A stretch of DNA of 44,119 nucleotides from a virus: IMG/VR virus record IMGVR_UViG_3300045988_175650, positions 1-44,119 of that record. The stretch is one strand, 5' to 3'. Shown here one piece after another: positions 29,428-30,666 of the stretch (the first letter of the stretch is position 1; every line of letters starts with the position of its first letter). Under the pieces are notes generated by a model. That model saw only the letters and a program-made list of their open reading frames with translations. It ran no database searches and had not been told where the DNA came from. The position numbers were made by a program, and so were the translations under genes.

Positions 29428-29877
29428 ATGCCCATTATCAAATGCCCGTACTGCGCCGGTGAAATCGAAACCGGCAAACAAAAAGGCGACCTCATCCGCT
29501 GCGAACATTGCCATAAACCGTTTGAGATCGGTGTCACCCGTCCGCGACCGGCGCCAGCATCCGCAGCGGCGTCGCCCGCAGCCCCTGCGCCTGTTACCCG
29601 ATATCGGGAAAAACCGGCGCAGGACATCAGCGCAACCGAGTTTGCGGGCGGACTGAGTATCGCCAAGTTCGTCGCCTTTATCGGCTGGTTTGTAATACTC
29701 ATCGCGCTGCTGTCATTTCTCGCCGCACTGTTTAGCGCCAAACCTATGGTGGGCATTGCGATTTCCATTGGCGCGCTGGTGTCAGGATGCAGTTTGCTAC
29801 TGTTTGCCCACATTGCCACTGCAACGATGAAAACCGCAGACTACGCCCGCATCACCGCGCTGAATTCGATGGAATAA
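29428..29877 (+). CDS. Zinc-ribbon + Pro/Ala linker + two-TM membrane protein (149 aa from MPIIKCPYC)
   Basis: CPYC...(13 aa)...CEHC zinc ribbon; PRPAPASAAASPAAPAP linker; hydrophobic helices FVAFIGWFVILIALLSFLAALF and GIAISIGALVSGCSLLLFAHI. Confidence 0.65.
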   Translation: MPIIKCPYCAGEIETGKQKGDLIRCEHCHKPFEIGVTRPRPAPASAAASPAAPAPVTRYREKPAQDISATEFAGGLSIAKFVAFIGWFVILIALLSFLAALFSAKPMVGIAISIGALVSGCSLLLFAHIATATMKTADYARITALNSME

Positions 29878-29880
29878 ACC

Positions 29881-30666
29881 GTGTTTACCTTCTTTGATTT
29901 TGACCCCGATGCTCCGCAGTTTGTGGCTGATTATGAGACCGCCTGGAAAATTGTCGCCTCACAACTGGAGATGGACAATAACCAACGTGTCAATATTAAA
30001 GAAGCCATACGGCAGCGGTTTAATCGAGGCATCAAAGAAATATACCGGGATGTCAAACCGTTTTTTATTGAAAAAGAATGGGGGTGGCGAAACCTGGATG
30101 CGTATATTGCGCATTTCAGGACACGCCCGTACATGCCGTATATGCTCGAATGGGCAGCAAGTTATCACGATATTCCGCAAAATCCCGATATGGATACGGC
30201 ATTATCATGGTTTACCGTGGCGGAATTAAAAGGATTTTGCAAAACGCACGGTTTGTCTGCTACGGGCAAACGGGAAGATATTGAAAATACCATCCGCTCA
30301 GAAGGTAGTTTTCTTGCGGCATGGTCTGGCGAAATAGCTCAAAGGCGCAGGGAGAAAGAAGAGAAAAAATCTTTATCCGACAAGAGAAAACGGGCAGAAA
30401 TCCTGATTCATTACGTTGTTTTTCTTTGTGGCGCACAAGGCAGGATACGGGATATTAAAAAGGCTTTTGCCCGCAATCCAGAAGCCGTAGTTGTCTTCAT
30501 GGATTGTCATGACGAAGGGGAGCGCGATTTCTACAAAAATATTACTGCAATTGATGAGATGTATTACCCGCCATTTTTCCCCGGCGACCGGGTAATAACG
30601 ATGATATTTAGAAATCGTGAAAAAGTACCGGCAGGTAGGAGAATATTGCAAACACCGTGGAAATAA
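29881..30666 (+). CDS. Uncharacterised 261-aa protein, paralogue B of the 7893-8570 product, with an inserted SAP-like motif
   Basis: The GTG start is supported by N-terminal alignment with paralogue A (MFTFFDFDPDAPQFVADY vs MTGLLEFDPDEKEFVADY). The extra ~45-aa segment contains FTVAELKGFCKTHGLSATGKREDIENTI (SAP-like). Low GC (sampled lines 37-48%). Confidence 0.8.
   Translation: MFTFFDFDPDAPQFVADYETAWKIVASQLEMDNNQRVNIKEAIRQRFNRGIKEIYRDVKPFFIEKEWGWRNLDAYIAHFRTRPYMPYMLEWAASYHDIPQNPDMDTALSWFTVAELKGFCKTHGLSATGKREDIENTIRSEGSFLAAWSGEIAQRRREKEEKKSLSDKRKRAEILIHYVVFLCGAQGRIRDIKKAFARNPEAVVVFMDCHDEGERDFYKNITAIDEMYYPPFFPGDRVITMIFRNREKVPAGRRILQTPWK

Follow-up and report, generated by a model that had tools for sequence, protein, structure and literature searches.

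A rare accessory protein family represented by two paralogues in a temperate oral phage of Cardiobacterium hominis

Genes at the two loci

We analyzed the whole of IMG/VR virus record IMGVR_UViG_3300045988_175650 (44,119 nucleotides [nt]; hereafter "the window"). This genome of a temperate phage, roughly 44 kb in size, comes from human oral metagenomes (ERR589498) and carries two genes of one protein family. Copy B encodes a product of 261 amino acids (aa) and lies, as the gene order confirmed, between the tail tube and the tape measure genes, while copy A encodes a 225-aa product in the operon of a CI-like repressor. A preliminary description of this DNA had judged by eye that the two are paralogues with about half of their residues identical, and pairwise BLASTP corroborated this assignment (E = 9e-61; 98 identities over ~199 aligned residues, or ~49%, with one 62-column gap). 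The same description had regarded each copy as part of a duplicated module together with a zinc-ribbon membrane protein. Our comparisons show that the two paralogues were acquired independently, and what looked like a duplicated two-gene system amounts to ordinary phage mosaicism, in which cassettes are swapped at gene boundaries. The proteins themselves form a small, rare and uncharacterised family of proteobacterial temperate phages.

The locus of copy B comprises the following features:

28417-29169, plus strand: tail tube gene (phrog_807)
29179-29346, plus strand: gene for a 55-aa DUF7210 protein
29428-29877, plus strand: gene for a 149-aa protein with a zinc ribbon, a Pro/Ala linker and two transmembrane (TM) helices; independent, exchangeable cassette at about 29423-29842
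29881-30666, plus strand: copy B, 261 aa, with SAP, GTG start; cassette at about 29878-30680
about 30678-30702, plus strand: intrinsic terminator directly after copy B (fold -19.2 kcal/mol, z = -3.86)
30819-30902, plus strand: sRNA-Xcc1-like RNA in the antirepressor leader (51.8 bits against a gathering score of 53)
30939-31838, plus strand: antirepressor gene (P22_AR_N; phrog_524 Ant)
about 31853-31880, plus strand: second intrinsic terminator
from 31890, plus strand: tape measure gene

The immunity operon with copy A is arranged as follows:

9399-10196, minus strand: CI-like repressor gene (Peptidase_S24), first gene of the operon
9181-9381, minus strand: gene for a 66-aa protein with a zinc ribbon (CPDC..CVRC) and one TM helix, 17 nt after the CI stop codon, with a GGGAG ribosome-binding site
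8585-9169, minus strand: gene for a 194-aa signal-peptide protein, with an AGGAG site ahead and 14 nt to copy A
7893-8570, minus strand: copy A, 225 aa, without SAP, with a basic-amphipathic C-terminal tail
7843-7861, minus strand: intrinsic terminator closing the operon
7738-7733, minus strand: perfect -10 hexamer (TATAAT) of a putative early-left promoter, with TTGCAT 16 nt upstream; read by eye

SAP segment and base composition of the two copies

Copy B contains a SAP domain (PF02037; residues 108-136, nt 30202-30288), which scored 30.1 bits against a Pfam cut-off of 23.9. Copy A had no PF02037 match, and the segment is deleted in this protein. In the family alignment, a SAP/HeH-like segment occupies the same place in most of the distant members, and for this reason copy A is best described as having a deletion and copy B as having no insertion. 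The SAP/HeH segment is thus ancestral in the family, with ~60 aa lost from copy A. The SAP-like motif that had been noticed in copy B therefore passed the formal test, but its interpretation as a ~45-aa insertion did not hold. Lineages without SAP arose several times besides copy A (L023, L025 and L047).

The GC content of copy B is 0.444 (0.435 at third codon positions, GC3) compared to 0.59 in the window, while the 149-aa gene has a GC content of 0.567 (GC3 0.62) and copy A of 0.522. Hence, the low GC content that had been ascribed to the gene pair at this locus applies to the 261-aa gene but not to its 149-aa neighbour. In IMG/VR, no contig carried both copies, which indicates that the double-copy state of the window is not general; one 40-kb contig had copy B alone, and one 46-kb relative apparently had neither.

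Cassette structure of the two loci

An obligate module of a zinc-ribbon protein and a family protein, acting as a sensor/effector (or offence/defence) pair and duplicated in the window, would explain why a small zinc-ribbon open reading frame (ORF) with TM segments lies upstream of the family gene at both loci. At the copy B locus, the 149-aa protein (CPYC...CEHC, a Pro/Ala linker and two hydrophobic helices; Pfam zinc-ribbon matches were weak) indeed lies directly before the family gene as described earlier, with its stop codon 3 nt ahead of the GTG at 29881, and this short gap also speaks for a module. Compared with PADLOC, the 149-aa protein gave a chance-level match (E = 0.064), and no sigma-70-like promoter was found upstream of its gene.

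We surveyed every locus with the 149-aa or the 261-aa gene, taking the interval from the DUF7210 gene to the antirepressor gene as the slot and locating breakpoints by blastn. The slot occurred in at least four arrangements:

149-aa gene and 261-aa gene: window, L001-L004, L015 and L016
gene for a 197-aa secreted protein and 261-aa gene: L012-L014
197-aa gene, SNase gene and 261-aa gene: L005
149-aa gene, opposite-strand 61-aa ORF (RHH-like by eye) and 66-aa TM ORF, without a family gene: L053-L061

Nine relatives carried the 149-aa gene (96-99% identity) without the 261-aa gene. Conversely, the 261-aa gene, 85-99% identical, followed the 197-aa secreted protein gene, with or without the SNase gene, in at least four loci lacking the 149-aa gene. 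Homology between the window and L013 breaks at 29422/29843, and homology to L053 ends exactly at the stop of the 149-aa gene (29877) and resumes at 30681, as it does for L059. The conserved terminator after copy B hence marks the right-hand cassette boundary. Because the breakpoints fall at gene boundaries and each gene occurs without the other, we conclude that there are two separate cassettes here, one with the 149-aa gene (about 29423-29842) and one with the 261-aa gene (about 29878-30680), in keeping with their differing GC contents. This difference in composition in turn argues against an obligate module. L013, which otherwise has the 197-aa cassette, keeps the 3'-terminal 35 nt of the 149-aa gene (29843-29877 in the window) upstream of copy B (5963-5997). 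This stretch may be a remnant of an older adjacency of the 149-aa and 261-aa genes, as a module would predict, or it may be the translation-initiation region of copy B.

At the immunity locus, a zinc-ribbon membrane protein had likewise been reported immediately before the family gene. The direct neighbour of copy A is instead the 194-aa signal-peptide protein, and the zinc-ribbon ORF is located one gene further upstream. The 194-aa protein was found directly upstream of copy A in all seven surveyed copy-A loci, whereas the 66-aa zinc-ribbon ORF is an optional cassette that was present in the window, L017 and L020 and absent from L008, L018 and L019. A second 66-aa zinc-ribbon protein with a TM helix, 36% identical, is encoded elsewhere in the early region of L020 (2816-3016) and L021 (653-853), and this small family is itself a mobile cassette. 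The 194-aa protein is homologous to the 197-aa protein over its N-terminal 50 aa (E = 1e-8), which comprise the signal peptide and a DCxxxKxYxxRxxC motif. The recurrent neighbour of the family, if there is any, is thus the secreted 194/197-aa protein and not the zinc ribbon. Pfam searches with the 194-aa, 197-aa, 61-aa and 66-aa neighbours returned nothing.

The two zinc-ribbon proteins of the window, whose possible homology had been raised, shared no detectable similarity (E = 19), and none of 12 distant family contexts contained a zinc-ribbon membrane neighbour. P0020 (544 aa) is a fusion of the family domain with a CxxC...CxxC segment, a linker and two TM helices, a layout like that of the 149-aa protein, which makes a loose functional link between zinc ribbons and the family possible. 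The fused segment has no sequence similarity to the 149-aa or the 66-aa protein. Since the zinc-ribbon neighbour is not conserved with the family members, the idea of a duplicated module fails, and we consider an obligate pairing very improbable. A sensor/effector or matched offence/defence relationship likewise finds no support in these data.

Distribution and conservation of the family

Word-indexed homologue searches retrieved close relatives only, and the family as such became visible only with an exhaustive profile search. This search of 1.84 billion representative proteins gave 37 matches, among them ~25-30 full-length members of 170-330 aa; the family is thus small, with about 30 diverged lineages. 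The family core matched no Pfam, NCBIfam or PADLOC model, and its sole PHROG match was phrog_14940, which is of unknown function. All source names that were found read "hypothetical" or "SAP domain-containing". A sequence-profile search of the PDB found no relative and gave only a weak SAP match, to 2rno (E = 0.4), while megablast of positions 28400-32000 and tblastn of the 261-aa protein against the GenBank phage collection returned nothing. In the literature on SAP domains in a prophage or superinfection context, nothing relevant was found.

From its N- to its C-terminus, the core has a helical region, one long helix and a small alpha/beta part, and the SAP/HeH insert lies in its middle. Invariant or nearly invariant positions, in the numbering of copy B, are W67, W69, F79, P86, L175, H177, E214 and P230-P231-x-F233-P234-G235-D236-R237, corresponding to a W-x-W motif, a Phe, the Pro of a WPYMW-like motif, L-x-H, a Glu and PPFFPGDR. 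A reading of the C-terminus as a PD-(D/E)xK or VRR-nuc nuclease was rejected, because many members end few residues after PPFFPGDR.

All contexts with recognizable neighbours were phages or prophages, and they came from Neisseriales, Burkholderiales, Hyphomicrobiales and Desulfovibrionaceae. The family gene was found in the following positions:

L044, L046 and L009: after CI-like or helix-turn-helix regulators
L025 and L047: between Mor and lysis genes in Mu-like phages
L010: beside Mor
L011: beside pRha
L043: next to an integrase gene
L049-L052, 8001-8996: directly upstream of the tape measure gene in a Kingella kingae Mu-like myo-prophage

The Kingella member is 24% identical, has an N-terminal TM helix and occupies the same relative position as copy B despite the unrelated tail type.

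The location of copy B between tube and tape measure, together with that of the Kingella homologue, would suit a tail-assembly chaperone or another tail component. Between 29170 and 31890 in the window, and in the corresponding interval of the relatives, no recognizable tail-assembly chaperone of the G/GT type was found (a frameshift signal was not looked for), and the 55-aa DUF7210 protein is the only constant gene of this interval across the window and its relatives. Some relatives have an extra 54-aa ORF just ahead of the tape measure gene (L004 6760-6924). However, copy B was absent from nine relatives whose tail-tube genes are 95-99% identical and whose tape-measure genes are also near-identical, so copy B is dispensable. 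Moreover, the Kingella prophage has chaperone-sized genes (137 aa and 51 aa) besides the family gene, a paralogue resides in the immunity operon, neither copy matched a tail or chaperone family, and the GC content of copy B is atypical. The scattered positions and the absence from close relatives dispose of the tail-chaperone idea, which we regard as highly improbable, and identify the family as an accessory ("moron") gene and not a structural one.

Predicted membrane tethers

Membrane tethers were predicted for about 40 family members. Approximately two thirds of these have a predicted tether, which takes four different forms: an N-terminal TM helix (nine members), an N-terminal hydrophobic-basic motif of the MGxFxFLFGxK type (MGFLDFLFGxK-type; ~12 members), C-terminal TM segments (two members), and the amphipathic C-terminal tail of copy A, GKRKKKGLIQWLWK, which we take to resemble an amphipathic membrane-targeting tail of the MinD type. 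As the same core bears different kinds of tether at either end, these predictions suggest that the family may work at the inner membrane.

Two members, P0032 and P0038, combine two N-terminal TM helices with a Pfam HeH domain (PF12949, E = 2e-10). A TM or amphipathic anchor joined to a helix-extended-helix DNA-binding domain is also found in phi29 p16.7, a membrane tether of replicating or packaging DNA, and in the eukaryotic HeH/LEM proteins of the inner nuclear membrane. The likeness is one of architecture only, and the conserved core of the family has no counterpart in these proteins.

Predicted fold and relation to MuF proteins

The AlphaFold2 model of copy B, built from a 30-sequence alignment (pLDDT 93.2, pTM 0.86), contains N-terminal helices, the SAP helices, a helix of 50 residues and a small three-stranded sheet with one helix. 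Foldseek searches of the PDB with this model gave a best E-value of 0.5 and no MuF match; the top matches, to the SAP-containing nucleases of the FAN1 type, were rejected on TM-scores of 0.14. In BFVD, the sole significant match was the uncharacterised copy-A-type protein A0A8S5T4G6, and the next matches were nearly all head morphogenesis or MuF-like minor capsid proteins (E = 0.06-1). The model of P0033, which is 19% identical (pLDDT 91.2), likewise had the family member as its first BFVD match, and MuF-type proteins made up ~30 of its top 50. Across both models, the MuF-type matches reached a probability of 0.98 and a TM-score of 0.52 at E-values of 0.06-1. The PPFFPGDRT loop of the family also resembles the PPLGFNCRCS of the MuF protein encoded in the window. 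In contrast to the family genes, which are not adjacent to portal or terminase genes, the gene for this genuine MuF protein adjoins the portal gene:

20745-22196: portal gene (Portal_Mu)
22196-23737, plus strand: genuine MuF gene, adjoining Portal_Mu

MuF/SPP1 gp7 (PF04233) is a virion protein that binds the portal and DNA; DNA binding is known for SPP1 gp7 itself. It represents, weakly, the nearest fold class of the two models, with helices in the N-terminal part followed by a small core of the alpha/beta type that ends in a Pro-Pro loop. The family differs from it in having no hidden Markov model (HMM) match, no significant profile comparison and replacements of the MuF Cys/His residues, and also in its location away from the portal gene, its dispensability, the SAP insert and the membrane tethers. 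The family is thus no MuF member, as judged from HMM match, motif and gene position. Comparisons of the family with single MuF sequences by hhalign gave nothing, and a deep MuF profile was not available, because a scan of viral contigs for MuF relatives yielded close relatives only. We therefore treat the MuF-like fold, seen in two predicted models, as a reproducible lead and not as a demonstrated relationship.

As an alternative, the family might serve the phage's own DNA, either as a MuF-like SAP protein that is made late and packaged or ejected like SPP1 gp7, or as a membrane tether like phi29 p16.7, with copy A being a degenerate or regulatory derivative. The dominance of MuF-type proteins in the Foldseek lists of both models is in line with such a role, as are the late-strand positions of copy B and its Kingella homologue close ahead of the tape measure gene, the location of the gene between Mor and lysis/head genes in Mu-like phages, and the combination of a SAP/HeH DNA-binding domain with frequent membrane anchors. 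Furthermore, MuF proteins are virion components that are injected together with the DNA (PMC5512222). Against this stand the absence of copy B from close relatives with 95-99% identical tube genes, the canonical MuF protein that such phages already encode next to the portal, the placement of copy A in a lysogeny operon, and the repeated loss of SAP; in addition, N-terminal TM helices are hard to square with capsid packaging. On balance, a function for the phage's own DNA, including the proposed derivation of copy A, is the main rival reading and seems rather doubtful to us.

The immunity operon

Copy A lies downstream of the repressor on the same strand, and a terminator follows before the putative early-left promoter, which is the position of a rexAB-like moron. 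We infer that copy A is co-transcribed with the repressor. The order of repressor, accessory genes, terminator and early-left promoter is that of the lambda rexAB region, and the operon likewise includes envelope proteins, as in lambda rexAB and P22 sieA and sieB; the genes of the copy A operon differ in having no sequence or family relationship to any of these. P22 SieA is described as an inner-membrane protein that blocks DNA entry (PMC10883804). The preliminary description had proposed that one copy is made in the lysogen and the other late in lytic growth, and this split fits the anatomy of the two loci, with copy B on the late strand. A 105-aa ORF with three predicted TM helices (10660-10977, minus strand) lies just beyond the repressor, where divergent early promoters are expected.

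The antirepressor region next to copy B

Copy B adjoins a secondary-immunity region that is embedded in the late operon and flanked by two terminators. The antirepressor gene is preceded by a leader of 240 nt with the sRNA-Xcc1-like element, and the corresponding elements of relatives scored 68-73 bits (L005 2706-2792, L014 5494-5580, and L053). In L053 (4036-4382), the sRNA-Xcc1 element is followed by an isrK-like RNA (49 bits) and a C4 antisense RNA (62 bits) directly upstream of ant. The immI region of phage P1 has the order c4 antisense RNA, icd and ant, and its c4 RNA controls ant. By analogy, the antirepressor leader looks like an RNA-controlled ant region of the P1 immI type. The relatives share with P1 an antirepressor that is preceded by small RNAs (here of the sRNA-Xcc1, isrK and C4 types), and the embedding of the ant region among late genes is shared with P22 immI, whereas the window itself has the sRNA-Xcc1-like element alone, scoring just below the Rfam gathering score. 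This likeness belongs to the region neighbouring copy B and not to the family protein. The ORF6N domain is of the KilA-N/antirepressor type. In APSE phages, an RNA of the sRNA-Xcc1 family has been placed upstream of a gene whose product, of unknown function, has an ORF6N domain (doi 10.1101/2020.03.17.996009). The antirepressor leaders of the window and its relatives suggest that "sRNA-Xcc1" is a cis-regulator of phage antirepressor genes.

Given this neighbourhood, copy B could be a DNA-binding regulator of the immI-like antirepressor region with a role of the Mnt/Arc type. Relatives without copy B have the opposite-strand 61-aa ORF in the slot near the sRNA and ant, copy B possesses a SAP domain, and two lineages have a P22_AR_N or pRha gene beside the family gene. 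Most family contexts, however, contain no antirepressor, copy B and ant are separated by a terminator, several lineages do without SAP, the RHH reading of the 61-aa ORF had no Pfam support, and known ant repressors do not resemble a protein of 260 aa that has membrane tethers. A regulatory role of this kind is therefore unlikely in our view.

Two strong terminators are located on the late strand ahead of the tape measure gene. This implies antitermination in late transcription or else a separate promoter for the tape measure gene.

Other features of the phage genome

The window represents a temperate siphophage or prophage of Cardiobacterium hominis. The host assignment follows from the NCBI record WP_079540436.1, a "SAP domain-containing protein [Cardiobacterium hominis]" that belongs to the ≥90%-identity cluster of the 261-aa protein. 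The genome combines a lambda-like early region (the CI-like Peptidase_S24 repressor and a YqaJ exonuclease) with a Mu-like head module (Terminase_3, Portal_Mu, MuF, Phage_cap_E and Mu gp36) and a siphovirus-like tail.

The MuF protein of the window (513 aa) has its MuF domain at residues 47-155 and a long C-terminal extension with an HExxH motif (HEYGH). The protein is a candidate fusion of MuF with a metallopeptidase (the "polyvalent / MuF toxin" kind), and its C-terminal half had no Pfam match. Within the head cluster, between MuF and the decoration/scaffold genes, another accessory gene has been inserted, which encodes a Bro-N and ORF11CD3 protein (antirepressor/KilA-N-like; 24149-24766, plus strand). 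Positions 9-178 (minus strand), at the window's left end, matched the Rfam "bacterial antisense RNA" HPnc0260 with 61 bits against a gathering threshold of 59.

Possible function and implications

Among the explanations considered, we rank an interference between phages first, in the form of superinfection exclusion or defence, because copy A sits where temperate phages keep exclusion and defence genes. The family protein would be located at the cytoplasmic face of the inner membrane, as the tethers and the nearest, MuF/SPP1-gp7-like fold would suggest. In this place, members with SAP would use it to contact DNA, and a conserved aromatic/His-Glu-Asp-Arg pocket would bind a phage component or ligand, which would hamper a competing phage or one that superinfects. 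Expression of copy A would belong to the lysogen and that of copy B to lytic growth. As a mechanism, this proposal is tentative and possible rather than probable; for anatomy and mechanism taken together as the best overall explanation, our confidence is somewhat higher, though short of even.

Several observations weigh against the interference proposal. No known homologue fixes the function of the family, and neither copy A nor copy B matched the HMMs of known anti-phage defence systems in PADLOC-DB 2.0. About a third of the members, copy B among them, have no recognizable tether, and no promoter was identified for copy B. Several of the genomic contexts are late or middle lytic (between Mor and lysis genes, or ahead of the tape measure), which suits a function in the phage's own cycle as well as defence. 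The MuF similarity was not significant by any single measure: PF04233 matched none of 30 members even at E ≤ 10, and the MuF motif R..H...G...PP.(H/G).NCRC has its counterpart in PPFFPGDR(T/S), with no Cys or His there. When the family was aligned by hhalign to a profile of six MuF sequences, the best segment fell on the equivalent strand-helix-PP region at a probability of 0.6% and E = 0.098.

A bolder version of phage-phage interference would see the family as a MuF-derived domain turned into a membrane-tethered weapon. The late form with SAP, which might be delivered or might act on DNA at the membrane, and the SAP-less lysogen form with its amphipathic tail would be a matched pair. The copy in the prophage would then serve as a dominant-negative decoy, directed at the cognate protein of related superinfecting phages or at their portal/DNA complex. 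We judge this scenario to be decidedly unlikely. If true, such a decoy pair would represent a novel kind of superinfection exclusion that uses the fold of a virion protein.

As it stands, our result is mostly corrective: the window contains an uncharacterised family with a possibly interesting ancestry, and no duplicated two-gene system. C. hominis is an oral pathogen of the HACEK group, and its phage biology is almost unexplored. If the interference proposal and the fold lead hold, the family would add a new type of protein to the accessory genes found in the immunity-region and late-operon hot spots of temperate phages, and it would exemplify the reuse of a virion-protein (MuF-like) fold equipped with a SAP/HeH insert and interchangeable membrane anchors.

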